From contig OY759724.1 of assembly GCA_963662715.1 (NCBI GenBank), positions 2,910,001-2,942,000 of the forward strand: DNA of 32,000 nt, written 5' to 3'. Each line of letters starts with the position of its first letter. Positions within the stretch are counted from its first letter, which is position 1. Both the position numbers and the translations under genes were made by a program. The notes beneath the pieces were generated by a model that was not told the DNA's origin, did not search any database, and worked only from the letters and a program-made list of their open reading frames with translations. The DNA is from Candidatus Omnitrophota bacterium (GTDB taxonomy: Bacteria; Omnitrophota; Gorgyraeia; Zapsychrales; JANLHA01). Positions 521-28,577 of this stretch are shown here, piece after piece.

Positions 521-2041
521 ATGAAGATAGCCTTTGTTAATGATTGGAGTCAGCAGATCGCCCTGCAGTATATCTTTGCCGTTTTAAAGAAACACGGCTA
601 TGACGTGAAGCTTTTTACGGAACCCAACTTGTTTGACGATATATGGATTTCCATCCCTCCCCTGCATAAGATCCTGGATTTTCGCGAAGAAGTGGTCAGG
701 AAACTTAAATTATATAATCCGGATTTGATCGGGATATCGGCCACAACGCGTACTTATGACTGGGCCTGTTATGTTGCCGAATCCATTAAGAAACACATGG
801 ACGTGCCGATTATCGCCGGTGGCCTGCATCCCACGTTTGTCCCGGAAAGAGTCATCGAAAACCCCTGTTATGATATGCTCTGTGTCGGGGAGGGGGAGTA
901 TCCTCTGCTGGAGCTCGTGCATAGCATGGAAAAGGGAACTGTGGATTATTCCATAAAAAACATCTGGTTTAAAAAAGACGGAAAAGTTATAAAGAATGAT
1001 ATCCGGCCGCTTATTGAAGATATCGATTCCATCCCTAACCCGGACATGGATGTCTACCTGGACAGCTATTCCTATCATACAAATTCTTACGTTATGAGCA
1101 CCCTTCGCGGTTGTCCTTTTTCTTGCAGTTACTGTTGCACATCGTATTATCATCAGCTGTATAAACTCAAAGGCCCGAGATTCCGCGTGCGAAGTGTCGA
1201 GAACGTCATTAAGGAACTGCTGGAAGTCAAAAGATTAAATAAGCGAACGCGGAAAATCATGTTTAACGACACCTGCTTCGGTTTTAACATCAAGTGGTTA
1301 AAAGAGTTCTCGAAGGAATATGCCCAAAAAATCAACATAGGCTTTTTTTGTGTCATGCACCCGGCGAGCATTACGGAAGAATCCATCGGATATTTAAAAG
1401 CCGCCAGATGCAGATGCGTGTCTTTGGGCATGCAGTCCTGGGAGGAAGACGTGCGGGTGAATTTGTATAATAGGCGGGTCAGCAATGAAGTCATGGAAAG
1501 GGCTGTTCAGCTCATTAAAAAAGCAAAGATGGAAGTGCTGTTGGACAATATTTACGGCCATCCCGGCTCGGATCCGGAAAAGTATATCCAATCGCTCGAC
1601 TTTTATACGCGCTGCAAGCCCACACGCAATTATTTTTACCGGCTGCATCATTTCCCCAAGACGGTTTTAACGGAAAAAGCGTATGCGAACAAATGGCTGT
1701 CGCACGGCCAGTATGAAAATGCCTTAGACGGCAAAGACTTGGGCACATTAAGGTATGAACCGGCCCAGGATGGTTCCTGTGCTCCCCAGGAAAAGATATA
1801 CAAGCAGATGCAGCTGTTGTTTATCCTTATCGACCTTGTCCCGGCAAGAGTCACTTATTATATTATCAAAAAAAGATGGTACAGGTTTTTCCCGGCATTC
1901 TTAAACTCGGCTCTTCTGACCATATGCCGCACATTAATCTCTTTTGACTTGGAGTCCTGCTACTTCCGTTCTATCATGTTTACCAGGTATTTTTATTTTA
2001 TAAAAAGGAAAATTTTAAGCCATTTAAGACTGAAAAAATGA
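521..2041 (+). CDS. B12-binding domain-containing (class B) radical SAM protein, substrate unknown
   Basis: The N-terminal cobalamin-binding-domain pattern is present (MKIAF..., PDLIGIS, VPIIAGGLHPT). The radical SAM cluster motif CxxxCxxC occurs in 'RGCPFSCSYCC'. The C-terminal tail is basic and hydrophobic. An ATGA overlap (2038-2041) joins it to the downstream paralogue. Confidence 0.85.
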   Translation: MKIAFVNDWSQQIALQYIFAVLKKHGYDVKLFTEPNLFDDIWISIPPLHKILDFREEVVRKLKLYNPDLIGISATTRTYDWACYVAESIKKHMDVPIIAGGLHPTFVPERVIENPCYDMLCVGEGEYPLLELVHSMEKGTVDYSIKNIWFKKDGKVIKNDIRPLIEDIDSIPNPDMDVYLDSYSYHTNSYVMSTLRGCPFSCSYCCTSYYHQLYKLKGPRFRVRSVENVIKELLEVKRLNKRTRKIMFNDTCFGFNIKWLKEFSKEYAQKINIGFFCVMHPASITEESIGYLKAARCRCVSLGMQSWEEDVRVNLYNRRVSNEVMERAVQLIKKAKMEVLLDNIYGHPGSDPEKYIQSLDFYTRCKPTRNYFYRLHHFPKTVLTEKAYANKWLSHGQYENALDGKDLGTLRYEPAQDGSCAPQEKIYKQMQLLFILIDLVPARVTYYIIKKRWYRFFPAFLNSALLTICRTLISFDLESCYFRSIMFTRYFYFIKRKILSHLRLKK

Positions 2042-3552
2042 AAATAGCTTTTATATCCGGCTCTTGTCAGACTTTGGGAATACAGTATATCTCCGCTGTC
2101 CTGAAGGCCGGTGGCCATCAGACAAAACTGTTCATGGATCCCCAGCTTTTTAATGACAGTTTTTTGTCCATAAATTTTTTGAGCCGGATGTTTGACCAGA
2201 AAAAAGAAATCGTAGCGCAATTGAAGGCTTATGCCCCCGACCTGATCGCCATTTCCGTTATCACAGATTTTTATCAATGGGCTTCGGGCATGGCGCGTAT
2301 GATCAAGCAGGAGATGGATGTGCCGATCATCCTGGGCGGCATTCACCCGACTTCGGTTCCGGAAAGGGTCATGAAAAATCCTTTGGTTGACATGATTTGT
2401 CTGGGGGAAGGGGAATATGCCATGCTGGAACTTGTCAATAGCATGGCCAAAGGGTGTATCGATTGTTCGATCCCGAACATCTGGTTTAAAAAGGACGGGA
2501 AAATTATAAAGAATGATATCCGCCCTCTTATAGAGGATATTGATTCTCTGCCTTTGCCGGATAAAGACCTTTACTACGAAGACAGCCCCAAGTTTGTTAA
2601 AGCTTATCCTTATCTGATAGCAACGGACCGCGGCTGTCCCTGTTCTTGCAGCTATTGTTGCCATTCCTACCTGAAGCCCTTTTATAAAGGAAAAGGGAGA
2701 TATTTCCGCCAACGCAGTGTTGAAAATGTTATGCGAGAACTGAAAGCGAGCAAGGCGAAATATCATATGAAACATATCGAATTTGTTGATGATTCTTTCG
2801 GACATAATATTGAGTGGCTGAAGCAGTTTTCCTCGGAATATCACAAGCACATCGGGATAAAGTTTTTATGCAATATGAGTCCTATGGATATCAATGAACA
2901 GTCTATCGAATGCCTGAAATTGGCCAATTGCGCTGTCATCAGTATGGGACTTCAATCGTGGGACAAGTCTATCAGGGAAAGAGTTTTTAACAGAAAGATT
3001 CCTAACGAAGTTATGGAGAATGCTATTTCCCTGATTAAAAAGGCTAACATTGCTCTGTCTGTCGACAACATCGTCGGGCTGCCAGAACAAAAAGAGGATG
3101 ACCTTATAGATTCGATTAAATTCTATTCGAAAATACGGCCTAACCGGATCTATTTTTTTAAGCTGCAATACTATCCCAACACTCAAATCACAAAAAGGGC
3201 AAGAGAGACCGGGCTTTTTACGGATGAGGGGTATGATGACCTCCTGGAGGGGAAATGTTCGGATGTCTTTCGCATGAAGTCGCTCGTCGCCCGCAAAAGA
3301 AGGTTGAATAAAAACATGATCAGGATCAACACCCTGTTGTTCCTGATGGATTTTCTCCCCGGGGAAATGATAGACCGTATTATTGAAAAAAAGACCTATT
3401 TGTATTTCCCGACATTGTTTGACCCCTATTTTATTTTTATCATCAGAAGACTGCTGTCCGCGGACGCGGAAGCCGGATTATATAGGGAAAGCACTTTAAG
3501 CCGGTATCGATATTATATAAAAAGAAAATTTTTAAAATGGGTGGGTTTTTGA
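2038..3552 (+). CDS. B12-binding domain-containing (class B) radical SAM protein, paralogue of 521-2041
   Basis: Same architecture as the upstream gene (MKIAF..., PDLIAIS, VPIILGGIHPT, 'RGCPCSCSYCC'). It is collinear with the upstream protein along its whole length and identical at roughly half of positions by eye. The start overlaps the upstream stop. Confidence 0.85.
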   Translation: MKIAFISGSCQTLGIQYISAVLKAGGHQTKLFMDPQLFNDSFLSINFLSRMFDQKKEIVAQLKAYAPDLIAISVITDFYQWASGMARMIKQEMDVPIILGGIHPTSVPERVMKNPLVDMICLGEGEYAMLELVNSMAKGCIDCSIPNIWFKKDGKIIKNDIRPLIEDIDSLPLPDKDLYYEDSPKFVKAYPYLIATDRGCPCSCSYCCHSYLKPFYKGKGRYFRQRSVENVMRELKASKAKYHMKHIEFVDDSFGHNIEWLKQFSSEYHKHIGIKFLCNMSPMDINEQSIECLKLANCAVISMGLQSWDKSIRERVFNRKIPNEVMENAISLIKKANIALSVDNIVGLPEQKEDDLIDSIKFYSKIRPNRIYFFKLQYYPNTQITKRARETGLFTDEGYDDLLEGKCSDVFRMKSLVARKRRLNKNMIRINTLLFLMDFLPGEMIDRIIEKKTYLYFPTLFDPYFIFIIRRLLSADAEAGLYRESTLSRYRYYIKRKFLKWVGF

Positions 3553-3819: not shown

Positions 3820-3848
3820 TTGACATTCTAAAATTCCCCATGTAAGAT
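3820..3848 (+). promoter_or_regulatory. Sigma70-type promoter: -35 TTGACA (3820-3825), 17-nt spacer, -10 TAAGAT (3843-3848)
   Basis: Read directly. An AT-rich UP-like tract lies upstream (3795-3819). It sits about 30-60 nt before the first riboswitch aptamer. Confidence 0.6.
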
Positions 3849-3877: not shown

Positions 3878-4049
3878 GAGGTGTTATTCAGTACGATATA
3901 AAACCGAATAAAAAAGGGAAGTTCCGTGAGATTCGGAGGCTGTCCGGCAACGGTAATATTTACTTTTTAATTGTAAATGAGCCCGAACACTTTTTTGTTT
4001 TGGGAAGTACCTTCTGTGGAAAGGGAAGATAAAGAATCGGATACTATAG
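3878..4049 (+). promoter_or_regulatory. Cobalamin riboswitch-like aptamer, unit 1 of a tandem pair
   Basis: The core reads 'AAAAGGGAAGTTCCGTGAGATTCGGAGGCTGTCCGGCAACGGTAA' (about 3911-3956). A B12-box-like 'GAGCCCGAACAC' follows at 3979-3990. It resembles unit 2 and the cob-operon riboswitch in this window. It deviates somewhat from consensus (one C short in the CCCGC element), hence lower confidence. Confidence 0.65.
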
Positions 4050-4078
4050 CCGGCCTTTCTACAGGTCGGTTTTTTTTT
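4050..4078 (+). terminator. Intrinsic terminator (expression platform of riboswitch unit 1)
   Basis: A 7-bp stem CCGGCCT (4050-4056) / AGGTCGG (4063-4069) with one G-U pair and a 6-nt loop, followed by nine T (4070-4078). Confidence 0.75.
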
Positions 4079-4104
4079 GACATTGAATCATTTGCAACAT
4101 AAAT

Positions 4105-4264
4105 AAATCATTCAGCAGGGAATTCGGTGAGAGTCCGAAGCTGTACCCGCAACTGTAAGCTTCATCTCCTTTGAGGATATTTTAAGAGGAGTTGAAGTGA
4201 GCCAGAAAACGAAAACCTCCGGGAATAGAGGAGCTAAGCCTACCTTTGTGGAAAAGGCGTTGAA
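4105..4264 (+). promoter_or_regulatory. Cobalamin riboswitch aptamer, unit 2
   Basis: 'CAGGGAATTCGGTGAGAGTCCGAAGCTGTACCCGCAACTGTAAGC' (about 4116-4160) is a close match to the conserved cobalamin-riboswitch core (GGGAA..GGTGA.A.TCC..CTGT.CCCGCAACTGTAA). The B12 box 'GTGAGCCAGAAAAC' lies at about 4197-4210. Confidence 0.85.
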
Positions 4265-4296
4265 CCCAGCTTCTCTTTAGGAGACTGGGATTTTTT
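4265..4296 (+). terminator. Intrinsic terminator (expression platform of riboswitch unit 2)
   Basis: Stem CCCAG(CT)TCTC / GAGACTGGG (4265-4275 / 4281-4289) with a 2-nt bulge, followed by ATTTTTT. It lies 46 nt before the ATG at 4343. Confidence 0.7.
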
Positions 4297-4342
4297 ATTG
4301 AACAAACCCAAATAAATTATTTTAAGGAAAGGAGTTTTTGAA

Positions 4343-5881
4343 ATGCAGAAATTTTTAATCCCGCAGCAGTTTATTTGCATCATGGCCTTGGTCGGTTTGT
4401 TGATGCCTGGAAATGCTGTTGCCGAAAATAATTTCAGTGAATATGGTTCTAACCAGATTGGGAATATTGTTTTACCGGAAGTTGAAGCGGGATGGTTCGT
4501 TCACTTTGATGCCATAGGTGAAACAGACCAGATGATCGGGGCCTACCCGGCAAAAGGGAGGGTCCTGGCAGCCAACGGAACAAGCATTTACCTGCAAAAG
4601 AACTACGGGGCCGGAGCGCATTCAGGCGACTGGCAATGGAACGGACCTGATCAGGCTCACACCGGGAATCTTCCCGGAGGTAACGATAATTTTTTAGTTG
4701 TCGGGACTACCACTGAGACGATGGATCCCATTTTTATAAAAGTATCTCCTGACGGTAATACCGTTGCACTCGGCGTGAGCTGGACCTCGCAACTATTGTT
4801 AGTTTTTCCGATCAGCTTGTTAGACCCGGACAATCCGCCTGTGTTGGATACGCACCCGTCTGTTACCGCGTATACAATTAACTGCTATGAGGGTCAATGG
4901 GTGCCGGAAGAAGCCGGAACAGCAAACTACCGTTTAGCACTGAATGGCGGGTCTTGGCCCGGTCCTTTTGAAAGTGATGTCGCGGTGCTTGACGTTACAC
5001 AGCCCAACTCTGAAGATCTTCCCTACAATCCTGTGCCTGTTATCGGTTCTATAGGAGGAGCGAGTGCTGATATTGATTTTGATAATGACGGGAATATGAT
5101 CACAGGTTGCGGGTACGGAACAGATCCGGAAACCGGGCAAATTAAAATTTTTACCCGAACGGATTGGGAAACGGTATACGCATCCGGTGGATCAACCGCA
5201 CCGCTGGATTATGCTGCCGCAGGACACTTATTGGCAGAAAGCATTTTAAGCGCCGCGGCCATGGGTGTGGATAAAGACGATAATCTTCATGTCGGAGGCG
5301 GGGACTTTGTCGATGGCTCTGAAAATGGCTTCGCGGCCCTGGTTCACGCGGACGTTGTCGCTAGAGTATTAACCGGAGGGGATCCGGTTAATGAAGGACT
5401 TGCCAGTGAGTATAGACAGCTCCAACCGGATTATTATGGGGATGACTCAGCTACATCACCTATTGAATTCAATCTTTTGGGAGAAGGCTTGAATATCTGC
5501 TGGAATCCAACCGGTACCGGCACGCAGGGTTCCGGATCGGATTGGTGGCAGGTGGGAGTCAAACCGGTTATGACAACCTATTACGGTGTCGACGCTCCTG
5601 ATAGTGATGGTGATGATATCCCTGATACATCGGATAACGCTTACATGACCCCTAATCCTAATCAATGGGATGCGGACGAAGATTCGTTCGGCAATGCCTG
5701 CGACTGCGACCTGGATAACAATGGCTCTGTGGGATTCAATGATTACGATTTATTTGTCGCTCAGTTCGGCCAGCCGGGAGGCCCGGACCAGCCTGCTGAT
5801 TTCGACGAGTCAAGCACAGTGGGTTTTAATGACCTCGATGTATTAATTACCCGCTGGGGCCAGGAAGAGCCTTTTAAATAA
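4343..5881 (+). CDS. Secreted protein of unknown function. It has an N-terminal signal peptide, a central region with FG-GAP/propeller-like Ca-binding motifs, and a C-terminal thrombospondin type-3 repeat plus a two-segment dockerin-like module.
   Basis: RBS AGGAG lies 7 nt upstream. The signal peptide is 'ALVGLLMPGNAVA|EN'. The TSP3-like repeat is 'DSDGDDIPDTSDNAYMTPNPNQWDADEDSFGNACD'. Two EF-hand/dockerin segments are present, 'DLDNNGSVGFNDYDLFVAQFG' and 'DFDESSTVGFNDLDVLITRWG' (D-x-D-x-N/S-G/S-x-V-x-x-x-D plus helix), separated by a Pro/Gly linker. Confidence 0.8.
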   Translation: MQKFLIPQQFICIMALVGLLMPGNAVAENNFSEYGSNQIGNIVLPEVEAGWFVHFDAIGETDQMIGAYPAKGRVLAANGTSIYLQKNYGAGAHSGDWQWNGPDQAHTGNLPGGNDNFLVVGTTTETMDPIFIKVSPDGNTVALGVSWTSQLLLVFPISLLDPDNPPVLDTHPSVTAYTINCYEGQWVPEEAGTANYRLALNGGSWPGPFESDVAVLDVTQPNSEDLPYNPVPVIGSIGGASADIDFDNDGNMITGCGYGTDPETGQIKIFTRTDWETVYASGGSTAPLDYAAAGHLLAESILSAAAMGVDKDDNLHVGGGDFVDGSENGFAALVHADVVARVLTGGDPVNEGLASEYRQLQPDYYGDDSATSPIEFNLLGEGLNICWNPTGTGTQGSGSDWWQVGVKPVMTTYYGVDAPDSDGDDIPDTSDNAYMTPNPNQWDADEDSFGNACDCDLDNNGSVGFNDYDLFVAQFGQPGGPDQPADFDESSTVGFNDLDVLITRWGQEEPFK

Positions 5882-5942
5882 CACTTTTATTCACGAAGGA
5901 TGAACTGTCTAAATTATTTGTATTTTTAAGGAAGGAGAGGCA

Positions 5943-8168
5943 ATGAAAAAAATTGTTCAGTTACTAACGATGCTTGTCGTATTTACCCTGTGCCTTGGCA
6001 TTCAATCCGTGTCCGCGGAAGATCCCGAAACCAATTGGCAGTTGCAACTTAAAGGGGTCGACGGAGATCTTGTTCAAGGATCATACTACTACGTGGAAGT
6101 CTGGTTTGTTTCAACGGATAATGGCGATAGCGGCACCGCCAATGACGGTGAGCAAAATCTGAACCGTTTCGGGCTTGATATTGATTATGACGAAACACGT
6201 TTGGAATCTCCGGCCATACTGTATGAATCTTATACAGATCCGAATGACCCGTTCGTTGAGATTTGGGACGGAGGTATTGTTCCGACGACTATAGAGGAAG
6301 ATACCGGGTATATAAGGGATGTGAACGGGAGTGAGCCGTTAGGCAGCAGCGGAGTATTTTTCCCTGATGACTTAAACGGAAAATTAGCCACCATCAGGTT
6401 TACGGCAAAAGTAACAGGCTCCCAGACAGACATTTTAACATGGGTTGATCCGGATATAGACGGGCTCGCCAGAATAGACGAGGTCACGTATAATCTTGAT
6501 CCGCTCATCCTTTGGAAAGACGGAACGTCTCTCAACGGCACCTATCTTCAGGAATATTACAGACTGCATCTGGGAATTAACGCCTTCGGTCAGGATGAAT
6601 TCCCGCAGGAAGTAAGCGAGCAGACATATTTCACCGGTGTGGCTTCAGCGTTGCAGGCCTTGCGTTTTTTAGGCCCGGCATATACCTGGCCGACCCAGCA
6701 GGAATTGTATGATGCGTATAATACCGGTGATGTCGGAGACGATTTCACCGCGCCTGCGTTAGAGACCTTGCTTAACGCCCTCACCTATAATAACAGCGGT
6801 TCGCCGTTTTATCGCATCTATCATTTTTCTGATTACAACGATAGCGATGAAGACACGGCTATTAAGAGAATCATTCACTGGATCGATTATGATGTCCCGA
6901 ACGCCCCGGATGAACCTAATGCGCCGGCCCATGTGCCTTTAAACGGCGCATACAACTGGATGACGGTTCGGGGGTTTGTCAGCGATATCGCTCCGACCGT
7001 AGAGGGTAATGTCTGGTCCATCCCGGAAGATGTCACGGTATACGGGCTTTGGCTCAACGACCCCAATGAGGATGGAATGGGCTACAACATCTATATGACC
7101 GGCGATGCCTTTAAGACGGCCTATGAGACTGTGGATGGAGGTCATCGCTCCGTTGTCGAGCCTCCTCTAGATGATGAAAAAATACAGAAATTTGAACAGG
7201 CTTTACCGGACATGAAAATCAATTATGTGAAAAGAAAAGCCAATAAACAACTCGCTCAGGCCATAAGATCAGATATGGAATTAACTTGGGATAAAAAAGA
7301 AGTTCTGGCCGCCAAGGAAGAATTAGATGAAACCCTTCTTCAACCTTTGGCTGAGGACGTGTTTGATCAATTCAAGTCACTAAACTGGGAAGACGTTATC
7401 CCGGAAGAATTGATGGCATCTCCTGATTTTAACAGCCTTTATTCAGAAACACCCTTTGCCTTGCCCATGACTGTCTTGAATGAGGAGAGTGCTACTGTCT
7501 ACACCCTCGTGCTTTTTGGCAAAGAACGGCCGCGCATGATCAGGAAATTGTATAAGGCCTATGCGGCCGTTGTGGTCGATGAAGAAGGCGTATTCCAGGA
7601 AGCATCCTGGACAACCTCCGGGGACACCTATCTTACGGAACGGGGAGCTTTGCATCTGGCCAAAAAAGCGCTGAAAGAAAACTACTTCAAAGAATTAAAA
7701 ATTTGGAAACGTTTATCAGGATCCCGCCGCTGGGACGTTGATATCGTCTTTCATCCGGAACTCAGCGGCAGTGTTTTTCTCCCGGTTTTTCAGGTGACTT
7801 CGCCTTTCGGCCCCGTTGTTTATGTGACACAGGATGGGGAAACGCAGATTGAAGGGGATGTCGATCCGGAGTTGAGAAAGGCGCTGCGGATAACGGCAGC
7901 CAAAAGAATAAAAAAAGCTGTTCTTGAAGAGACGACAAATAAGAAAGAAGACTTTCGGCAAGACGCTTTAGCACGTCTGCCTGTCATCAGCGTTGATGTC
8001 TCAGAACAGGACAATACTGTCGGTGTCCGTATTGACCCGGAAGATGCCAAAAAAACAAAAGAAATTATTGAAAGGGTTGCCGAACTCTACAAAGAAAAGA
8101 CCAATGCCGATGTTGTCACTGTCGTGCATTATGTCGGAGGTAAAATTTTCAGTCGATCGACTCATTAA
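5943..8168 (+). CDS. Secreted protein of unknown function with an N-terminal cohesin-like domain and a K/E-rich C-terminal region
   Basis: RBS GGAGAGG is present. The signal peptide is 'FTLCLGIQSVSA|ED'. Residues about 30-170 follow the cohesin pattern: 'GSYYYVEVWF', 'FGLDIDYDETRLES', 'GKLATIRFTAKVTG'. The rest is unassigned. The domain call is by eye only. Confidence 0.75.
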   Translation: MKKIVQLLTMLVVFTLCLGIQSVSAEDPETNWQLQLKGVDGDLVQGSYYYVEVWFVSTDNGDSGTANDGEQNLNRFGLDIDYDETRLESPAILYESYTDPNDPFVEIWDGGIVPTTIEEDTGYIRDVNGSEPLGSSGVFFPDDLNGKLATIRFTAKVTGSQTDILTWVDPDIDGLARIDEVTYNLDPLILWKDGTSLNGTYLQEYYRLHLGINAFGQDEFPQEVSEQTYFTGVASALQALRFLGPAYTWPTQQELYDAYNTGDVGDDFTAPALETLLNALTYNNSGSPFYRIYHFSDYNDSDEDTAIKRIIHWIDYDVPNAPDEPNAPAHVPLNGAYNWMTVRGFVSDIAPTVEGNVWSIPEDVTVYGLWLNDPNEDGMGYNIYMTGDAFKTAYETVDGGHRSVVEPPLDDEKIQKFEQALPDMKINYVKRKANKQLAQAIRSDMELTWDKKEVLAAKEELDETLLQPLAEDVFDQFKSLNWEDVIPEELMASPDFNSLYSETPFALPMTVLNEESATVYTLVLFGKERPRMIRKLYKAYAAVVVDEEGVFQEASWTTSGDTYLTERGALHLAKKALKENYFKELKIWKRLSGSRRWDVDIVFHPELSGSVFLPVFQVTSPFGPVVYVTQDGETQIEGDVDPELRKALRITAAKRIKKAVLEETTNKKEDFRQDALARLPVISVDVSEQDNTVGVRIDPEDAKKTKEIIERVAELYKEKTNADVVTVVHYVGGKIFSRSTH

Positions 8169-8197: not shown

Positions 8198-8383
8198 ATG
8201 CAGATCAAACTCAGAAAAAAACTAAGAAGTAAAAAAGGCGCCAGCGCTGTTGAATATGCCTTGATAGCCGGTTTGGTTTCTGTGGTGCTTATCGCAACGC
8301 TTGGCTCGTCAGGAACTTTCGGCACAGCGTTTACGGGTATGTTTGGCCGGCTTGCCGATGAATTAGATGCTGTTCAACCGTAA
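8198..8383 (+). CDS. flp: Flp-family type IVb/IVc pilin
   Basis: 61 aa with a basic leader, then the Flp processing motif 'G|ASAVEYALIAGLVSVVLI' (G/xxxxEY followed by a hydrophobic helix). RBS AAAGGAGG lies upstream. Confidence 0.9.
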   Translation: MQIKLRKKLRSKKGASAVEYALIAGLVSVVLIATLGSSGTFGTAFTGMFGRLADELDAVQP

Positions 8384-8811
8384 TGAAATTCTTTAATGCT
8401 TCAAAACGAACACCGTTTGGATTAGAAAGCGGGGCATCAGCCGTGGAGTTTGCGCTGGTGCTCCCTTTCTTGCTAATTGTCTTTTTTGCAATCTTTGAAA
8501 TGTCATGGCTTGTTTCGTCACAGACGATCCTCAATCACGCTGTTTTTGAAGCCGGCCGGACAGCCGCGATTGCCAAAGAAGAAGGATATTCTGATACGGA
8601 CGCGACGTCTTATGCGAAGGCAAGAGCCGTGAACTCCTATTGGATGGGGGCTCTGGACCCGGATGATGTGACGGTGAATTTTGATGAAAGCGGCTATGTC
8701 CCGCAGGTTGAAATATCCGCCCTGATGAACTATGTCCCTTTAACGGGGTGGTTTGACGCAAGCCAGCTTCCCGGCCAGATCACATCCCAGGCGGCTATGC
8801 CGTATCATTAA
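8383..8811 (+). CDS. tadE: TadE-like pseudopilin
   Basis: The N-terminus 'SGASAVEFALVLPFLLIVFFAIFE' is the TadE/TadG-like motif. It has a TAATG overlap with flp. Confidence 0.8.
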   Translation: MKFFNASKRTPFGLESGASAVEFALVLPFLLIVFFAIFEMSWLVSSQTILNHAVFEAGRTAAIAKEEGYSDTDATSYAKARAVNSYWMGALDPDDVTVNFDESGYVPQVEISALMNYVPLTGWFDASQLPGQITSQAAMPYH

Positions 8812-8829
8812 TGACAGGAAAGAAGACCA

Positions 8830-10068
8830 ATGAAAAATGTGCGAGGAATGATAGCCTTTTTGATCGCCTTGTTTTGCGGTTTGATCGCCGCGAAAATGAC
8901 ATCAAAATATCTGAGGGAACTGCAAACGCCGCAGCCGCCGCAACCGGACATTGAAATGCAGGATATAGCGCCGATGGCCCCCGGGCAGGACAAGCCATTT
9001 ACGCAATCAATCCCCCAGGGCATGCGGGCTTTGAGTATACCGGTTGATGAAGTGACCGGGGTTTCCCGGGAAGTCAACAAAGGGGATATCGTTGATGTGG
9101 TTGCTGTATCTAAAGCCTCAGCCGAATGTAAGAATAAAGACGGCCGTATCGCCCGGGTGATTTTACAGGGAATAGAGGTTTTAGCAGCGGCCGCTCAGCA
9201 GGAGGAAGAGGACAAGCCGGCGTTACAAGTCACTAAGAAAGAAAAAAAGTGGGTGGCGACTCTTCTGGTCAAAGCGGAAGAGGCCCCTCTGCTGGCAGCG
9301 GCTGACGCTTCGGCCGATTTAAGACTCGTTGTCAGAAATCCTTCTGATGACATAGCCTTGCAAGAGCCTCTTGCAAGGGGGTTCGATAAAAAACAGGGCA
9401 GCTATGTCCACCGCGACCAACGGCAGATTCCTCCTGTTGATATGAAGAAACTCGTCCGTCCGGGCATGCGCGCTTTTACCCTGATTACGGAACTGGAAGA
9501 CGGTGTTTCCGGCCGTCTGCAGCCGGGAGACAGGGTTGATGTCATTTTGACCTGCCCCTTCGGGCATTTTAGTGCCAAGGGCCATGAGGCGGGGGCCGAA
9601 GGGACGATCACATCAACCCACATGGCATCGCGTATTTTTTTGCAGGACATTGAAGTTTTGGCCGTTGATGAAAACGAAAGGCTCGTCATGCCGCCTAAGC
9701 TTTCCAATGATAACCTGAATGACGTTATGCCGACGGAAAATGCTGCGGTGACGGAAGTGGTCCGTTCCGTTGTCCTGCATCTTAGCCCGGAAGATGCCGA
9801 GTTGCTGGCGGTCGCTCATGATGCGACAGAAAAAAGTGTTATACGCCTGGTTCTTCGCCATCCGGAGGATGCCGGGATAGTCAAAACAGACGGTCAGCTG
9901 TTAATTGAGCTGTTAACGGAAAAAAAGGAGTATTCCAATGTAGAAGTTATCCGCGGGATAGAGCAAACTGCAAAGAAATTTTTTAAATACAAAAAAGGTG
10001 CGATTGCGACGCGTTCTGAAGCTTTGTTTAATCTGCCTGATGTTGATGATAGGGATGGGAACGAATGA
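8830..10068 (+). CDS. cpaB: CpaB/RcpC-like Flp pilus assembly protein with a tandemly duplicated RcpC-type domain
   Basis: An N-terminal TM anchor is followed by two similar modules. Module 1 is 'GMRALSIPVDEVTGVSREVNKGDIVDVVAV...LQGIEVLAA...LRLVVRNPSD'. Module 2 is 'GMRAFTLITELEDGVSGRLQPGDRVDVILT...LQDIEVLAVD...IRLVLRHPED'. It sits between tadE and the secretin. Confidence 0.75.
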   Translation: MKNVRGMIAFLIALFCGLIAAKMTSKYLRELQTPQPPQPDIEMQDIAPMAPGQDKPFTQSIPQGMRALSIPVDEVTGVSREVNKGDIVDVVAVSKASAECKNKDGRIARVILQGIEVLAAAAQQEEEDKPALQVTKKEKKWVATLLVKAEEAPLLAAADASADLRLVVRNPSDDIALQEPLARGFDKKQGSYVHRDQRQIPPVDMKKLVRPGMRAFTLITELEDGVSGRLQPGDRVDVILTCPFGHFSAKGHEAGAEGTITSTHMASRIFLQDIEVLAVDENERLVMPPKLSNDNLNDVMPTENAAVTEVVRSVVLHLSPEDAELLAVAHDATEKSVIRLVLRHPEDAGIVKTDGQLLIELLTEKKEYSNVEVIRGIEQTAKKFFKYKKGAIATRSEALFNLPDVDDRDGNE

Positions 10069-11708
10069 AAACATATTTCATAATACTGCTCTCTTTGATT
10101 TTTTTGTGTTGTGCGGCTGTGGCAAATGTTTCGGCGGAAGATATGGAGGACTATCGTGATGTGCGGGAGACTGTCTCACAGAAAAATCAAGGGAAGAAAA
10201 TTTCACTTGAACTAAATAAATCCTTGTTATTTCGCCTGGAAAGACCGGCTATCCGCGTATCAATTTCGGCGACAGATGTCGCAGACGTCACCCTGCTCAC
10301 CCCCCGGCAGATACTCGTTGTATCTAAGAAAATTATCGGAACGACCAATTTGATTGTCTGGTATGACGAAGAAGAGGTGGAGTCCTTTGATGTTGAGATC
10401 TTTATCCCCAACCGTTTGCTGGAGATCATTGAATCCACCATTAAAGAACACGCCCCCCGGGCCTACATCACCCTGAATATCACTCCTACAAGCATTATTA
10501 TCGACGGTTTTGTTGAAGACCAGGAAACTTTTCTTCGTGTTGAAAAAATCGTCAAAAGCTACGTCCCGAACGTCACTAATCTCATCAAAATACGGGGAAC
10601 GATTCAAAAGGCCATTAATCGGGTGACCGGAGGAGAACACGTTAAAGTCATTATGGAAAAATCAGGCCTTTTGCTGGACGGGACGGTAGACAGTCAGGCG
10701 ACTCTGATCCGGGTGCTGCAAGTGGCCCGGGGCTACTCAAAAGATGTCAATAATATGATGACCGTTAAAAGTCCGCAACAGGTTCAGCTGGAAGTCACCA
10801 TTGCCGAAGTCTCCCGCAGCGCGATCAAACAACGCGGATTAAGTTATTTGTTAAACTCTGACGGCGGCCGGCTGGGACTTTTAAAGTCAGGAGCCTTATC
10901 AGATACCAGCGATGATTCTTCCGGCAGTTATTCGATTGAAAGTGAAGGTGTTCCTGATTTGAATGATGTCGCTAGCGCTCTGTGGGGGGCACAAGTCTCT
11001 GATGTCCTGTCGGACTCGGCCGTGAATTCGGCTTATGGCTCAGCCTTCCAGATTCTGGTACAGTCTATGGATGATAACTGGCTTTCGATCATCAGTCTTT
11101 TGAAAGGTCAGGGGCTGGCGAGGACCCTCGCGACACCAACCCTGGTCGCCCTCAATGGCCAAAAAGCGAAATTTCTTGTCGGGGGAGAAATTCCTTATGT
11201 TACGGAAGAGGCGATCATTTTCCGGGAATTTGGCATTCAACTGGAATTCACGCCTTATCTTACGGGTAAAGAAAGCATGACACTTGTTGTTGAACCGACG
11301 GTGAGCTCGGTGGACTGGTCTTTTGACCCGCCGGGATTAAAGGAACGCGCCGGGTCGACAACCTTGAGCCTAAAAGACGGACAGACATTTGTGATGGCCG
11401 GGCTCATCACAGAAGAATTTTCCGAAATCAGCAATAAAATTCCATTTTTGGCTGACATCCCCGTGCTCGGTTCGCTTTTTGAAAGCAAGCAGTTCCGGAA
11501 AAGCGAATCAGAATTGATTATCGTTGTGACGCCGCGTTTAGTCCGGCCCCTGAATCGAAATGAATTAAAGAAAGTGCCTATTTTTAAACAGCCTAAAGAT
11601 ATCAATGATGAGGAATTTTTCCTCTATAAAACAAACACAGACTCGAATGTGACAGACCGTAATTCCGCTCCCCCGCAGACTGTGGGGACATTCGGGTTCG
11701 CAAGGTAA
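10065..11708 (+). CDS. cpaC: CpaC/RcpA-family outer-membrane secretin
   Basis: A signal peptide is present, with a CpaC N-terminal domain ('LELNKSLLFRLERPAIRVSISATDVADVTLL...TTNLIVW'). Two BON-like modules follow. The secretin core reads 'LATPTLVALNGQKAKFLVGGEIPY' and 'IPFLADIPVLGSLFESK...SELIIVVTPRLV'. Confidence 0.9.
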   Translation: MKTYFIILLSLIFLCCAAVANVSAEDMEDYRDVRETVSQKNQGKKISLELNKSLLFRLERPAIRVSISATDVADVTLLTPRQILVVSKKIIGTTNLIVWYDEEEVESFDVEIFIPNRLLEIIESTIKEHAPRAYITLNITPTSIIIDGFVEDQETFLRVEKIVKSYVPNVTNLIKIRGTIQKAINRVTGGEHVKVIMEKSGLLLDGTVDSQATLIRVLQVARGYSKDVNNMMTVKSPQQVQLEVTIAEVSRSAIKQRGLSYLLNSDGGRLGLLKSGALSDTSDDSSGSYSIESEGVPDLNDVASALWGAQVSDVLSDSAVNSAYGSAFQILVQSMDDNWLSIISLLKGQGLARTLATPTLVALNGQKAKFLVGGEIPYVTEEAIIFREFGIQLEFTPYLTGKESMTLVVEPTVSSVDWSFDPPGLKERAGSTTLSLKDGQTFVMAGLITEEFSEISNKIPFLADIPVLGSLFESKQFRKSESELIIVVTPRLVRPLNRNELKKVPIFKQPKDINDEEFFLYKTNTDSNVTDRNSAPPQTVGTFGFAR

Positions 11709-11711
11709 AAT

Positions 11712-12884
11712 ATGAATTACGAAGAATATCAATACGCTATTATTTCTTTGGATGAAAAATTCACGGCCCATATTAAAAGAATTCTCAATCCCGCCATAAC
11801 GGCAGATCACATTATCTCCGCCGGTTCTTTAACACGGCTGCCAGTAAGTCAAAAAACTATTGTATTATTCGATGCGCGGACGTTGAATGTCCAGTCCATG
11901 GAATGTGCCCGGCAGTTTAAAAAAAGGAAAAGGGACGCTAAATTTCTGATTATTTCGGACAACATGGATCCTCATGAGATACGAAACTGGATGAGACTGG
12001 GAGCGGTTGATTATTTGACGCCCCCTTTAGATAGTAAAGAATTGCTGAATGCCGTTCAGCGCATGGTCGATTTAGACCATTCCCAAAATTTCAACGACTC
12101 GCAGGTTATGGGGGTCTTCAGCTTGAAAGGCGGACAGGGGGTTACATCCATAGCCACCAATATGACTGACCATATCACCCGTCTCACGCATGAAAAAAAC
12201 CTGTTAATGGACCTTAATCTTTATATGGGGCATATGTCTGTTCTTTTAAATCAAAAATGCACCTATACCCCTTTTAATCTGGTCCGGGATTTGCCGCGGG
12301 CGGATGAAGACCTTCTCCTGTCTTCTATAGAAAAACACGAAAACGGGTTCCACCTTTTGGGAGTTTCAGATGAGATTGCCGATGCGGAGCAGATCAGCCG
12401 TGAAGATGTGAAATCCATGCTTCAAGTATTAAGAAAAGTTTTTAATTTTATTGTCGTTGATCTCCCGCATGACTTTTCCAACCAGACCCTGGCCGCTCTT
12501 GATGAGTCCGATAGCATTCTTCTTGTTGTTCAACAGAGCGTGCCGAGTTTGAAAAGCGCCCAAATGGCCATTCAAATATTCGGGGAACTCGGGTATCCGG
12601 ATCATAAGGTCCATGTGGTTTTAAACCGGTATCTCAGCCGTAATCCCATTCAACACGATGATATTGAGGTAGCCCTGAATAAGCCTGTGTTTATGTCTTT
12701 AGAGAATAATTATCCCGTTATGTCGGAAGTTTTTAACAGCGGTCAGACCATTCATTCATTTGAAAGGCATTCAGATATTAACATAACATTTCATCATTTT
12801 GCAGCAAAATTGATCGGTGTAAATCCGGCCTTGAAACGCATGAGAACATTAAAAAGGCTCTTTTCGAGAATTAAAGGATCATAG
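11712..12884 (+). CDS. cpaE: TadZ/CpaE: atypical receiver domain plus ParA/MinD-like ATPase
   Basis: The N-terminus is receiver-like and lacks the conserved KP lysine ('DYLTPP'). A deviant Walker A occurs in 'FSLKGGQGVTSIATN'. It sits between the secretin and tadA. Confidence 0.8.
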   Translation: MNYEEYQYAIISLDEKFTAHIKRILNPAITADHIISAGSLTRLPVSQKTIVLFDARTLNVQSMECARQFKKRKRDAKFLIISDNMDPHEIRNWMRLGAVDYLTPPLDSKELLNAVQRMVDLDHSQNFNDSQVMGVFSLKGGQGVTSIATNMTDHITRLTHEKNLLMDLNLYMGHMSVLLNQKCTYTPFNLVRDLPRADEDLLLSSIEKHENGFHLLGVSDEIADAEQISREDVKSMLQVLRKVFNFIVVDLPHDFSNQTLAALDESDSILLVVQQSVPSLKSAQMAIQIFGELGYPDHKVHVVLNRYLSRNPIQHDDIEVALNKPVFMSLENNYPVMSEVFNSGQTIHSFERHSDINITFHHFAAKLIGVNPALKRMRTLKRLFSRIKGS

Positions 12885-12889
12885 CCTTT

Positions 12890-14239
12890 ATGAGCTTAAC
12901 GGAACGTTTCCTGAGAAACCAAAAAAGTGATAAAAATTATCACAACGAGCAGTTGACAATCGATGAGGCCTCTTTTGATAAAGCCAAATTGCTTGTTCAT
13001 GAAAAGGTCGTTGAGATCATGGATTTATCCAGTATCATGGAAATGCCCCGGGAAGAGCTTGAACGGTCTGTCCGGGATATTTTGATCCAAATGCTCGAAA
13101 CCGAAAAGATCCCGCTCAACAGAGCAGAACGTTCGCGTTTGATTTCGGAATTGTTAAATGAAATCCTGGGTTTGGGCCCTATTGAACTATTGATACATGA
13201 TGAAAGCGTACAGGATATCCTTATTAACGGAAGCAAAAACGTTTATATTGAAAAACAGGGTGTCATCCATCAAACAGCCATTCATTTCCGGAATGACGAA
13301 CATTTGATGCAGGTGATTGACAAAATTGTATCCAAAGTGGGCAGACGGGTGGATGAATCCTCCCCTATGGTTGATGTCCGGCTGCCCGACGGATCGCGCG
13401 TAAATGTCATTATTCCCCCTGTTGCTTTGGATGGGCCGCAGGTATCCATTAGAAAATTCGGTGACACCCGGTTAACACAGGAAGGGTTACTACAACATCA
13501 GAGCGCTACGGCCCAAATGACGGCATACCTTCAAATGGCGCTACGCTCCAAACTGAATATCCTTATTTCGGGCGGAACAGGCAGCGGGAAGACGACGTTG
13601 TTGAATATTTTATCAGGCCATATCCCGCATAACGAAAGAATCGTAACCATCGAAGATATTGCTGAACTTAAGTTAAACCAGCCTCATGTCGTGCGGCTGG
13701 AAAGCCGCCCGGAAAACATTGAATCCAGGGGGGAGATCACATTGACAGACCTCGTTAAAAACAGCCTGCGTATGCGGCCGGACCGAATTATTGTCGGAGA
13801 GACGCGGGGGGGGGAAGTCCTGAACATGCTTCAGGCCATGAATACAGGGCATCCAGGCTCCATGAGCACAATACATGCTAATTCCCCCCGGGATGCTTTC
13901 TCCCGCATGGAAGTGATGATTGGTATGGCTCCGACCATTTTATCAGAACGGGGAGCCAAAGGTTTGATCGCCAGTGCTATTAATGTGATCGTTCAATGTT
14001 CACGTCTTGTCGACGGCTCGCGCAAGGTCATATCCATTTCCGAAGTCTGCGGGATAGAAGACGGCGAAATCATGACGCACGAAATTTTCATTTTTGAACA
14101 GCAGGGGATCAGTGAGGAGGGGCGAGTCTACGGCTGTTTTAAGCCCGTAGGTTCAACATCCATTTACAAGGAACATTTCTTGTCTAACGGCATGGAACTG
14201 CCCCCGGCCCTGTTTCATTTCCAGCAAAAGGTTCGTTGA
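12890..14239 (+). CDS. cpaF: TadA/CpaF secretion ATPase
   Basis: Walker A is '[12 protein letters not shown]', Walker B/Asp box is '[12 protein letters not shown]', and the His box is '[12 protein letters not shown]'. Confidence 0.93.
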
Positions 14240-14240
14240 A

Positions 14241-15179
14241 ATGGTTTTGTTAATAACCATCATTGTTTTTTTGACAATATTTTTTTCCGTGCTGACGGTG
14301 TATTTCCTGAAAGAGGACAATCGGCGTAAAGTTAAGAACACTTTACTTATACGATTGCTTCCGGCTGAAGAAGCCCTGCCGCATCATTTTTATCGTCTGA
14401 ATTCCCAAGTAGCGGACTCTCATGATTTTTGGTTAGCCAAGAAAATCAGGAAGCATCTGGAAATCGCCAACATGGAAATCCCGGTTAAAACTTTTATTTT
14501 TTATTGTTCTCTTATATCCGTTATAACATTAATTTTATTTTTATTCCTGACGGGGCCTTTAACGGCCTTAACAATGAGTTTATTGTCAGGAGGGCTTGGG
14601 CCTTTTTTGTACATCATGTATCGCCGGCATAAAAGAGAAAATGCCTTGGTTGCGCAGTTGCCCGATGCCGTTGATATGATCAGCCGGGGCCTTCGCTCGG
14701 GGCTGAATCTGGATGATAGTCTCAAGGAGATTGCCCGCTCCTTTTCAGACCCCATCGGACCGGAATTCAGGCGCATGTATGAAGAAATGGCGCTTGGCCT
14801 GTCCTTCGAGCAGGCTATAAGAGGTTTAGAAAGCCGTTTTGTCCGGGTACATGACGTGAAAATTCTTTGCGCGGCGTTTCTGATTCAGAGGGAAACAGGG
14901 GGGAACTTAACGTCTATTCTGGACACAATATCCAGGACGATCCGTTCCCGCCTGGTGTTTTTCCGCCAGGTACAAGCTCTGGGGACAGAAGGCCGCGTGT
15001 CGGCCTACATCCTCGGCAGCCTGCCTTTTTTGTTTGCTCTTATTACTTGGTTCATTCAGCCAGACTATATTAATCTGCTGTTTACAGAACCGGCGGGAAA
15101 AACGGCTTTAAGTTTAGCCTTGATTTTTGAGATGGCAGGATTCGCTCTTATGTACAGGATGGGAAAGGTGGAGGTATGA
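14241..15179 (+). CDS. tadB: TadB (type II secretion system F-family inner-membrane platform protein)
   Basis: Polytopic membrane protein with a T2SSF-type cytoplasmic domain ('LPDAVDMISRGLRSGLNLDDSL'), immediately after tadA. Confidence 0.85.
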   Translation: MVLLITIIVFLTIFFSVLTVYFLKEDNRRKVKNTLLIRLLPAEEALPHHFYRLNSQVADSHDFWLAKKIRKHLEIANMEIPVKTFIFYCSLISVITLILFLFLTGPLTALTMSLLSGGLGPFLYIMYRRHKRENALVAQLPDAVDMISRGLRSGLNLDDSLKEIARSFSDPIGPEFRRMYEEMALGLSFEQAIRGLESRFVRVHDVKILCAAFLIQRETGGNLTSILDTISRTIRSRLVFFRQVQALGTEGRVSAYILGSLPFLFALITWFIQPDYINLLFTEPAGKTALSLALIFEMAGFALMYRMGKVEV

Positions 15180-16881: not shown

Positions 16882-16893
16882 AGGAGCGAAATT

Positions 16894-21082: not shown

Positions 21083-21099
21083 ATTCATCTAACAATTTG

Positions 21100-21281: not shown

Positions 21282-21317
21282 AATCCTTAAGTGCAAATCG
21301 CGCTTAAGGATTTTTTA
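21282..21317 (+). terminator. Intrinsic terminator (expression platform of the cob-operon riboswitch)
   Basis: A perfect 10-bp stem AATCCTTAAG (21282-21291) / CTTAAGGATT (21303-21312) followed by a T-run. It overlaps the 5' extension of the ORF-track model 21291-21953, which supports the later start at 21330. Confidence 0.8.
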
Positions 21318-21329
21318 TTGAAATCAGAA

Positions 21330-28574: not shown

Positions 28575-28577
28575 TTT

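Follow-up and report, generated by a model that had tools for sequence, protein, structure and literature searches.

A putative dockerin-cohesin pair at the head of a Tad pilus operon preceded by tandem cobalamin riboswitches

The DNA stretch analysed here, referred to as the window, comprises 32,000 nt of contig OY759724.1 (positions 2,910,001 to 2,942,000, forward strand), assigned to a Candidatus Omnitrophota bacterium. Two adjacent genes for secreted proteins, ORF-A and ORF-B (open reading frames 4343 and 5943), lie in it between a leader with two cobalamin aptamers and the genes of a Flp/Tad pilus. An earlier note on this DNA, made from the sequence alone, had proposed that the two proteins form a dockerin-cohesin complex. 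Here we describe the modules of both proteins, the recurrence of the pair in related loci and its regulatory and genomic setting, and we weigh what such a pair may do. Positions of all features are collected in Table 1.

Modules of ORF-A and ORF-B

The C-terminal part of ORF-A starts with a thrombospondin type-3 (TSP3) repeat that follows the pattern DxDxDGxxDxxDxC..N..Q.D.D.DG.GD.CD. In a phmmer search of PDB sequences, residues 419-461 (nt 5597-5725) match the type-3 repeats of COMP with E=2.2e-9, while thrombospondin-1 and -2 are matched more weakly; the ORF-A family profile finds COMP at 1.8e-27. The repeat is thus located where the earlier note had placed it. Profile libraries recognize it to different degrees: Pfam TSP_3 (PF02412) scores the C-terminal fragment at E=0.0065 and 16.6 bits, under its 25-bit cut-off, NCBIfam throspo3_MtsC gives a partial match (4.8e-8), and 7 of the 26 ORF-A homologues match TSP_3 at E<=0.01 (best 6.8e-7).

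The repeat is continued by two EF-hand loops, each with a helix after it, and this part of the early description agrees with both the translation and the AlphaFold2 model. Segment 1 is DLDNNGSVGFND-YDLFVAQFG (aa 456-476) and segment 2 is DFDESSTVGFND-LDVLITRWG (aa 486-506), with a 9-residue linker between them. The loops, of 12 residues each, are D456-L-D-N-N-G-S-V-G-F-N-D467 and D486-F-D-E-S-S-T-V-G-F-N-D497, and helices are predicted at 465-474 and 495-503, where the predicted local distance difference test (pLDDT) is 84-94. Both segments are present in 26/26 ORF-A homologues, whose C-termini align column by column. Pfam Dockerin_1 (PF00404) is matched by 12 of these 26 family members (best 3.5e-6), and one homologue carries the NCBI name dockerin type I domain-containing protein. 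With the family profile, both segments are covered by matches to type-I dockerins of known structure (2y3n_B at 5.6e-5; 2vn6_B, 6kg9_A and 3ul4_B at 5e-4 to 1e-3).

We compared the two 21-residue segments of the 26 proteins at positions 9-11, 13-15 and 17-18, which we take, from cellulosome structures, to be the cohesin contacts of type-I dockerins. Identity at these positions is 0.62 between the two segments of one protein, against 0.18-0.19 between orthologous segments of different proteins, and the observed within-protein value was reached by none of 20,000 partner permutations. In 22 of the 26 proteins, the first segment is matched best by the second segment of its own protein. Variation within the family is highest at positions 10 and 11 (14 and 12 residue types, respectively), yet these are the same within the protein in 19/26 and 17/26 cases; ORF-A of the window has F-N there in both segments. 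The two segments thus evolve in concert within each protein. Such evolution is a prediction of the symmetry of dockerins with a dual binding mode, and it points to a partner that differs between lineages, while near-identical recognition residues in both segments of ORF-A suggest a dual binding mode for this protein as well.

Nearly all C-termini of the ORF-A family carry the motif A/E/G-P-[FYW]-[YK] just after the second helix (alignment A2 columns 700-706), with invariant Pro. The terminal motif is EPFK in the window, and PF[EDN] ends other dockerin-tailed cargo (L001, L003, L004, L047). A contig scan with the ORF-A family was dominated by the TSP3 motif, and disclosed one full-length relative (L012) and 33 loci with C-terminal similarity only, mostly in other phyla. 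In the latter (L013-L045), tails similar to ORF-A aa about 416-510 are attached to unrelated proteins and contain TSP3 and the first dockerin segment, often also the second. Their hosts include many Gammaproteobacteria (Methylomonas and others), Planctomycetota, Zixibacteria, Acidobacteriota and other groups. On the evidence of these similarities, the TSP3/dockerin tail is portable and widespread among Gram-negative bacteria.

The rest of ORF-A consists of a Sec-type signal peptide and a beta-propeller. The AlphaFold2 model, based on a 26-sequence alignment (pLDDT 82.6, predicted template-modelling score, pTM, 0.84), shows an all-beta propeller, after which come a loop region and two short helices. 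Foldseek matches of the propeller are generic (WD40, YxaL, Drp35; query-normalised template-modelling score, TM, about 0.35); BtuG is not among the 50 matches listed for the model, and none of them offers a specific functional lead. An enzymatic role was considered from matches to Drp35 lactonase and sugar dehydrogenase folds, and rejected, as these have no sequence support and TM as low as that of WD40. A profile search restricted to the propeller yielded 39 clusters, all unnamed, and no annotated distant relatives. The whole ORF-A family is tight as well (29, later 39 clusters), with Desulfobacterales names wherever a source gives one. Because there is no Pfam match and the propeller profile finds unnamed clusters only, ORF-A was not filed as BtuG.

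In ORF-B, the N-terminal segment is predicted as a beta-sandwich. The AlphaFold2 model of the protein (38-sequence alignment, pLDDT 89.8) divides into the beta-sandwich (33-209), an alpha/beta part (231-405) and, past a helical region, a beta domain (505-640); a long helix then leads to a small alpha/beta domain (681-740). In blocks of 10 residues, pLDDT of the N-domain is 91-97 for aa 31-170 and falls to 75-89 for aa 171-210. Foldseek ranks 1-34 among PDB structures are occupied by cohesins only, of types I, II and III, with E 3.1e-4 to 1.2e-2, probability 1.00 and 112-173 aligned columns; other parts of ORF-B gave no convincing match. Target-normalised TM is moderate, 0.42-0.57, against single-module cohesin entries and 0.24-0.33 against multi-module ones. 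The model is in agreement with the cohesin fold, a nine-stranded jelly-roll beta-sandwich of about 140-180 residues, and a different predicted fold, which would have spoken against the earlier proposal, was not obtained; the domain extends over 6039-6569, compared with 6030-6460 in the note. A DUF4465-type jelly roll was also considered for this domain and rejected, since fold matches are exclusively cohesins and Pfam finds no DUF4465.

On the sequence level, relatives of ORF-B connect this domain to cohesins indirectly. In P0046, a Pfam-significant Cohesin (4.1e-9) lies where ORF-B has its N-domain, immediately before the central module that both proteins share, and hhalign aligns it to the N-domain profile of ORF-B (A4) with a probability of 61.8%. 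The same profile aligns at 91% with profile A5, built of the beta domains of small PEP-CTERM-tailed proteins encoded next to ORF-A relatives. Matches of A5 in PDB sequences are cohesins only (E 0.014 to 0.38), and one such neighbour, in L011, matches Pfam Cohesin at E=0.0031, under the cut-off. The domain is a portable module: it stands alone with PEP-CTERM-like tails in P0079, P0083 and P0098, and P0133 combines it with a TSP3 repeat and a Dockerin_1 that is significant in Pfam.

Downstream of the sandwich, 511 library proteins match ORF-B at E<=0.001, mostly over the central module. This module is usually C-terminal in very large secreted multidomain proteins (up to 4789 aa), in which GH31, GH2-like, S8 peptidase, CBM4_9 or T9SS domains are found. 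The central module and the long helix gave no match in Pfam, PDB sequences or PDB folds, and the module may represent an uncharacterised widespread domain; the secondary structures of its first alpha/beta part follow a papain/C39-like order, without a conserved Cys. The statement in the earlier note that glycoside hydrolases (GH) and carbohydrate-binding modules (CBM) are missing is true for ORF-A and ORF-B themselves, but the central module is shared with C-terminal regions of large GH, CBM and S8 proteins. The C-terminal domain of about 60 residues recurs fused directly to a cohesin-like domain in L010 (11463-12386), and at the ends of proteins with an N-terminal transmembrane segment and a Pro-rich linker in L012 (2512-3153) and L046 (9231-9845). 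It may be an anchoring element. The architecture of the L012 and L046 proteins, encoded just 5' of ORF-A relatives, is reminiscent of TonB.

Taken at the level of the two window proteins, Pfam, NCBIfam and PADLOC detect no Cohesin, Dockerin_1 or defence match in ORF-A and ORF-B, and only sub-threshold signals of TSP3 type. Whole-protein searches of PDB sequences with ORF-B, by phmmer and with profile A3, returned nothing. The Pfam check named in the earlier note was therefore negative for the window copies, which are too diverged for Pfam thresholds, whereas the dockerin is recognized at the family level (the 12 members mentioned above) and the cohesin at the level of the fold. By family profiles and predicted folds, the assignment of a TSP3 repeat and dockerin-type tail to ORF-A, and of a cohesin-type beta-sandwich to ORF-B, is supported, and the pattern exceeds what chance would give.

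Pairing of the two modules in related loci

A cohesin-like gene adjoins the ORF-A relative in 11 of the 11 ORF-A-family loci compared (the window, L001, L003, L004, L008, L009, L010, L011, L012, L046 and L047), a count which is not phylogenetically independent, the loci being mostly metagenomic and from one order. The partner is variable in form and position. It is ORF-B, downstream of ORF-A, in the window, and an ORF-B orthologue (41% identity) located upstream in L008, where gene order is reversed and adjacency is kept. In L009, a 224-aa PEP-CTERM-tailed protein is encoded upstream and a 770-aa ORF-B orthologue downstream. L010 has a 228-aa PEP-CTERM-tailed protein upstream and, downstream, a 307-aa protein comprised of a cohesin-like domain and the ORF-B C-terminal domain. 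The remaining loci (L001, L003, L004, L011, L012, L046, L047) share a gene directly downstream for a secreted protein of 190-220 aa, with a cohesin-like domain and a PEP-CTERM-type tail. Outside this set, the gene in front of the ORF-B homologue of L005 encodes a protein with a TSP3-like stretch and two EF-hand segments at its end. The L002 and L006 homologues are uninformative on partners because they lie beside contig ends or opposite-strand genes.

Cargo proteins unrelated to ORF-A in the same loci end in TSP3 and a dockerin tail, with recognition residues as in the local ORF-A relative: VNLLDYL in three L001 proteins, VGLPDYSIFRR in L003, and VN..DFN.LR..W in L004. In the large dockerin-tailed proteins listed in Table 1, a TSP3-like Asp-rich stretch precedes the tail in those read, and recognition residues match the local ORF-A relative in three of the four loci. 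Judged from these residues, each locus looks like a set of several cargo proteins for one cohesin. Adjacency, concerted evolution of the segments and recognition residues shared among cargo are three independent comparative supports for ORF-A and ORF-B as a putative, and very likely, cognate pair.

A further domain, with the motifs GPGPDFA(V/T)FENGF and ELGYVEVSSNGTDF, recurs in L005 (3357-4373), L012 (6200-6976), and the C-terminal halves of L001 5664-8846 and L004 5810-8953. It is often followed by a PEP-CTERM-type tail, has no Pfam match, and co-occurs with dockerin and cohesin genes.

Riboswitch leader, Tad pilus operon and B12 context

The leader between the radical-SAM genes and ORF-A is 790 nt long. 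Both of its aptamers belong to Rfam clan CL00101, lie on the sense strand in the 5' leader, and are each followed by a terminator-like hairpin with a U-run. The second hairpin was found by folding and is absent from the list of the simple terminator scan. Aptamers with such hairpins have the usual look of transcription-terminating OFF switches, here doubled. A search at relaxed threshold found no c-di-GMP aptamer in the window leader.

Genes from ORF-A through the TPR gene are co-directional, with spacers of 0-61 nt, and folding revealed no hairpin in the spacers between ORF-A and ORF-B and between ORF-B and flp. The Flp pilin gene, missing from the first list of open reading frames because of a size cut-off of 100 aa, has a good ribosome-binding site AAAGGAGG, starts 29 nt past the ORF-B stop, and overlaps the tadE start with its own stop; the pilin contains a processing-type motif G/ASAVEYALIAGLV. 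A gap of 247 nt (16881-17129) precedes the tadG-like gene, and a small ORF is found there in relatives. The complement of flp, tadE, rcpC, secretin, TadZ, CpaF, TadB, TadC, TPR and TadG corresponds to the content of Flp/Tad (type IVc) operons. No candidate gene for a prepilin peptidase (TadV/CpaA) was found within 8198-18625; it may lie outside the 32-kb window.

The gene order is repeated in two relatives, L009 and L010, whose cobalamin riboswitches score 133.6 and 127.8 bits: after the riboswitch, and a PEP-CTERM cohesin gene that the window does not have, come the genes for the dockerin propeller and the second cohesin protein, and then flp, tadE, rcpC and the secretin gene. L012 and L046 each have a complete Tad locus convergent with the cluster, and in L003 Tad genes are about 7 kb downstream on the opposite strand. 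The claim that the two genes lead a B12-controlled pilus and secretin operon is thus supported, and made more precise, by two Rfam-significant aptamers with their hairpins, by the hairpin-free spacers and closely placed pilin gene, and by the gene order repeated in the two relatives.

Riboswitches were counted in the ten ORF-A-family loci with enough upstream sequence. Cobalamin riboswitches are present in seven of them (the window, L003, L004, L009, L010, L011 and L047), and c-di-GMP-I-type riboswitches also in seven, standing alone in L001, L012 and L046. Four loci (L003, L004, L011, L047) carry tandems of both kinds, located in front of operons for DUF4465, dockerin-tailed and PEP-CTERM cohesin-like proteins. 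DUF4465 genes adjoin the ORF-A relative or lie near it in L001, L003, L004, L011, L046 and L047, and a DUF4465-like gene was judged from sequence in L012. DUF4465 domains from several phyla have been shown experimentally to bind B12, and those of Bacteroides BtuJ1 and BtuJ2 are surface scavengers (PMC13398666). In L010, a TonB-dependent receptor and ExbBD-TonB are encoded just 5' of the riboswitch. Considering these loci together, the pair is part of a conserved gene set with predicted repression by B12.

Other parts of the window are also rich in B12-related genes. Genes for B12-dependent enzymes, the radical-SAM pair, adjoin the putatively B12-repressed operon on the same strand; the first was assigned by Pfam (Radical_SAM and B12-binding domains), and the second was judged from its translation. 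The 3' region of the window is a dense B12 island.

Table 1. Features of the window and of related loci. Locus names are given where positions refer to a related locus.
Feature	Position	Strand	Basis or remark
Two B12-binding radical-SAM genes	521-3552	+	directly 5' of riboswitch leader
Sigma-70-like promoter, TTGACA-17 nt-TAAGAT	3820-3848	+	consensus scan, 10/12 matches; pattern match only
Cobalamin aptamer 1 (AdoCbl-II model; AdoCbl, adenosylcobalamin)	3901-4000	+	Rfam RF01689, 42.5 bits vs gathering 36.5, full model 1-81
Terminator-like hairpin and U-run after aptamer 1	4048-4079	+	terminator scan; -12.9 kcal/mol, z-score -3.8, then U9
Cobalamin aptamer 2 (RF00174 core)	4119-4210	+	Rfam RF00174, 40.2 bits vs gathering 31.5, model positions 47-167 only
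Terminator-like hairpin and U-run after aptamer 2	4265-4297	+	-12.9 kcal/mol, 10-pair stem, then AUUUUUUAUU
ORF-A gene	4343-5881	+	512 aa; signal peptide, beta-propeller, one TSP3 repeat, duplicated EF-hand/helix tail
ORF-A signal peptide, aa 1-27, ...GNAVA|ENN	4343-4423	+	read from translation; hydrophobic helix aa 7-20 in model
ORF-A beta-propeller, aa about 30-415	4430-5587	+	AlphaFold2 model
ORF-A TSP3 Ca-binding repeat, aa 419-455	5597-5707	+	phmmer vs COMP, family profile
ORF-A dockerin-type module, two EF-hand loop and helix segments	5708-5860	+	family-level evidence
ORF-B gene	5943-8168	+	741 aa
ORF-B signal peptide, aa 1-25, ...QSVSA|EDP	5943-6017	+	read from translation; helix aa 2-18 in model; Sec-type
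ORF-B cohesin-fold N-domain, aa 33-209	6039-6569	+	AlphaFold2 and Foldseek, hhalign
ORF-B central module, aa about 210-640	6570-7862	+	~430 residues; library proteins match over aa about 195-630
ORF-B long connecting helix, aa 641-679	7863-7979	+	AlphaFold2, single helix aa 642-678
ORF-B C-terminal small alpha/beta domain, aa 680-741	7980-8165	+	model, strand-strand-helix-strand-strand
Flp pilin gene, 61 aa, ...KKGASAVEYALIAGLV...	8198-8383	+	Pfam Flp_Fap 51.9 bits, E=6.6e-14
TadE-like pseudopilin	8383-8811	+	Pfam TadE 50.4 bits
RcpC/CpaB	8830-10068	+	Pfam RcpC 149 bits
Secretin CpaC/RcpA	10065-11708	+	Pfam Secretin 133.6 bits, T2SS-T3SS_pil_N, BON
TadZ-like, CpaF ATPase, TadB, TadC, TPR (TadD-like) genes	11712-16881	+	Pfam AAA_31/Response_reg, T2SSE 220.6 bits, T2SSF twice, TPR families
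TadG-like protein	17129-18625	+	Pfam Tad 22.4 bits vs cut-off 22.3
Hybrid PAS histidine kinase/receiver gene	18817-21006		on the + strand, after tad genes
Second cobalamin riboswitch	21092-21226	+	heads corrinoid salvage and btuFCD/cobO genes
B12 gene run behind second riboswitch	21092-31796	+	cobC-like, cobU, cobT, cobS, cobD, cbiB, cobQ, Diphthami_syn_2-type, btuF, btuC, btuD, cobO
Third cobalamin aptamer	31841-32000	+	cut by window end
Tandem aptamers, L003	5637-6205, 8167-8594		cobalamin first
Tandem aptamers, L004	1420-1819		c-di-GMP first
Tandem aptamers, L011	3117-3520		c-di-GMP first
Tandem aptamers, L047	36-363		c-di-GMP first
Large secreted dockerin-tailed proteins, L001	5664-8846, 12631-14448
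Large secreted dockerin-tailed protein, L003	1720-4761
Large secreted dockerin-tailed proteins, L004	5810-8953, 12888-16076
Large secreted dockerin-tailed protein, L047	5663-8812

Possible functions and relation to known systems

On balance, we consider it somewhat more probable than not that the locus encodes a secreted cargo/scaffold pair of dockerin-cohesin type heading a flp-tad operon, that this operon is attenuated by the two tandem cobalamin riboswitches, and that the whole serves as a response to B12 shortage. With plentiful B12, both aptamers would terminate transcription, and with scarce B12 the whole array would be read through. ORF-A would then dock by its Ca-loaded dockerin onto the cohesin of ORF-B, which would keep it at or near the cell surface while Tad pili assemble. 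The most likely purpose would be capture of corrinoids outside the cell by the propeller or the complex, as done by the BtuG/H/J lipoproteins in Bacteroides; alternatively, the complex might keep the cell attached to a source of corrinoids. Adhesion, and possibly also an export route, would come from the Tad apparatus. An extracellular response to B12 shortage is favoured because of the riboswitches, the DUF4465 neighbours and the uptake genes. Corrinoid binding by the propeller is suggested by analogy with BtuG, and this analogy rests on genomic context.

Several observations weigh against this interpretation. ORF-A of the window has no Pfam Dockerin_1 match up to E=10, and in phmmer searches of PDB sequences its dockerin fragment alone finds only weak matches, to calcineurin-type EF-hands, and no solved dockerin. 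ORF-B does not match Pfam Cohesin (PF00963), its N-domain profile A4 retrieves no cohesin among PDB sequences at E<10, and the TM values are moderate. The propeller has neither a Pfam match to PF16819 nor sequence similarity to BtuG. Furthermore, the window is devoid of a DUF4465 gene and of a PEP-CTERM cohesin, loci with c-di-GMP riboswitches only (L001, L012, L046) fit a general adhesion role as well, and internal promoters may be present before flp. The non-independence of the compared loci has to be added to this list.

Plain adhesion is the main rival, and we regard it as unlikely, though well worth considering. In such a module, without a direct corrinoid role, the pair would be comprised of matrix or cell-cell adhesins acting with the Tad pilus, and the B12 switch, together with c-di-GMP in relatives, would be a lifestyle signal for attachment at low B12, for example to a partner organism. 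Riboswitches of the c-di-GMP-I type are typical of attachment genes, and they head 7 of the 10 related loci; the propeller, in addition, shows no detectable similarity to known B12 binders. To our knowledge, however, the genes otherwise found under cobalamin riboswitches serve B12 uptake or synthesis or encode B12-independent isozymes. Genes of the B12-binding DUF4465 family recur beside ORF-A relatives, and a TonB-dependent receptor and ExbBD-TonB lie beside L010. Tad pili are adhesion organelles (PMC12307814), and the cohesin/dockerin proteins of syntrophic sulfate reducers have been proposed as adhesins (PMC10553843), both in line with attachment.

Export or display of the pair by the Tad machinery, through or on the Flp pilus and secretin, is possible from operon structure, and as an account of the locus we hold it to be improbable. 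The pair stands directly 5' of flp in a tight operon, an arrangement kept in L009 and L010, no other outer-membrane export system is visible within the window, and the C-terminal domain of ORF-B recurs in proteins encoded beside Tad loci. Export of operon-encoded proteins is found in type IVb pilus operons of Vibrio cholerae (TcpF) and enterotoxigenic Escherichia coli (ETEC; CofJ), and export by the Tad system can be conjectured by analogy. Secretion of a soluble protein is not known for any Tad (type IVc) system, however, and many ORF-A relatives use PEP-CTERM-anchored cohesins, while their Tad genes are encoded on the other strand or fall outside the sequence examined. A type II secretion system may also lie elsewhere, the view being limited to 32 kb. 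Less probable still is a chance neighbourhood of two unconnected parts, in which the tail of ORF-A is a partnerless Ca-binding stabiliser and the sandwich of ORF-B a generic Ig-like or carbohydrate-binding fold. The missing Pfam Dockerin_1 and Cohesin matches of the window proteins, the calcineurin-type EF-hands found with the tail alone and cohesin TM-scores of about 0.5 would fit it. Such a view has to be set against the top 34 fold matches, exclusively cohesins, the family profile that covers both segments of dockerins, and adjacency in all 11 loci, in one of them with reversed order. Positions 10 and 11 are hypervariable, and their concerted evolution would hardly be expected if there were no partner; P0133, in addition, joins an ORF-B-type N-domain to a significant Dockerin_1.

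Cellulosomal type-I pairs (Clostridium/Acetivibrio thermocellum, C. cellulolyticum, Ruminococcus flavefaciens) are similar to the pair studied here in the duplicated 22-residue EF-hand/helix dockerin, C-terminal on secreted cargo, and in the cohesin sandwich, about 150-180 residues long and carried by another secreted protein. Symmetry of the dockerin segments at recognition positions, locus-specific recognition residues common to several cargo, and fold and profile matches are shared as well. Differences concern the cargo, a glycoside hydrolase in cellulosomes and here a beta-propeller with TSP3 before the dockerin, and the occurrence of the family in Gram-negative Desulfobacterales-type organisms with a single cohesin per scaffold. 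Cohesins of the relatives are anchored by PEP-CTERM tails, instead of S-layer homology (SLH) domains or sortase. Control by cobalamin (and c-di-GMP) riboswitches, genes joined to a flp-tad operon and sequences below Pfam thresholds further separate the pair from cellulosomes.

Cohesin and dockerin modules outside cellulosomes are widespread, and those of anaerobic methanotrophic (ANME) archaea and syntrophic sulfate-reducing bacteria are listed as putative extracellular adhesins (PMC10553843). That set shares with ours cohesin/dockerin domains in Desulfobacterota without cellulolytic genes. In the accessible text, its proteins are listed by domain annotation only, and no tie is drawn to B12 riboswitches, Tad operons, DUF4465 or PEP-CTERM anchoring. 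In Bacteroides, btu loci encode the riboswitch-regulated surface lipoproteins BtuG (a beta-propeller), BtuH and BtuJ (DUF4465) (PMC13398666; bioRxiv 10.1101/2025.07.01.662609). Extracytoplasmic proteins behind cobalamin riboswitches, a propeller beside DUF4465 in relatives and TonB uptake genes near L010 resemble this arrangement. Unlike Btu proteins, those described here are not lipoproteins and have no similarity to BtuG; their putative tether is cohesin-dockerin or PEP-CTERM and not a lipid, and a pilus operon is attached.

Tandems of AdoCbl and c-di-GMP-I riboswitches in Desulfobacca acetoxidans have been described as NOT-A-AND-B logic gates (Sherlock et al. 2022, PMC9481103). That work also speculated that pili and B12 may be connected, and the regulated genes are not analysed in its accessible text. 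The cobalamin and c-di-GMP-I tandems of the four relatives resemble these gates, whereas both aptamers of the window leader are cobalamin aptamers and none is of the c-di-GMP type. The c-di-GMP aptamer precedes the cobalamin one in L004, L011 and L047, opposite to the AdoCbl/c-di-GMP-I order tabulated for Desulfobacca (PMC9481103). The literature search revealed no link of cobalamin riboswitches to Tad pili, nor of cohesin-dockerin to PEP-CTERM. The suggestion that this context is new for cohesin-dockerin modules is in accordance with that search; copies in sulfate reducers have been listed as putative adhesins (PMC10553843). What is new is the regulatory and genomic setting; the assembly modules themselves are familiar.

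Soluble secreted proteins encoded inside a pilus operon are represented by TcpF of the V. cholerae toxin-coregulated pilus (TCP) and CofJ of ETEC CFA/III. Those operons are of type IVb and not Tad, their secreted gene is downstream and not at the head, and they are without cohesin-dockerin modules.

A wider, so far unrecognised system could be envisaged in Desulfobacterales, in which corrinoid-binding cargo (the new propeller family, DUF4465 and others) would be assembled by cohesin-dockerin on PEP-CTERM- or ORF-B-type scaffolds under B12 starvation, and displayed or exported by the Tad pilus and secretin in the window lineage. A corrinoid harvester of this kind, cellulosome-like and under the control of cobalamin (and c-di-GMP) riboswitches, is a speculative extension that we consider doubtful as a whole.

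Cohesin-dockerin interactions are understood almost only as the glue of cellulosomes, and many non-cellulosomal copies are without an assigned role. A pair with a regulatory input, B12 and in relatives c-di-GMP, and with a conserved partner machine, the Tad pilus, opens testable roles beyond polysaccharide degradation. If the proposed organization is true, it would be the first pilus operon under a cobalamin riboswitch, as far as the searched literature shows, and it may identify the type of gene controlled by the AdoCbl/c-di-GMP tandem gates of Desulfobacca. It would also extend surface scavenging of B12, mainly known from gut Bacteroides, to marine and sediment sulfate reducers, whose syntrophic communities are shaped by corrinoid exchange.

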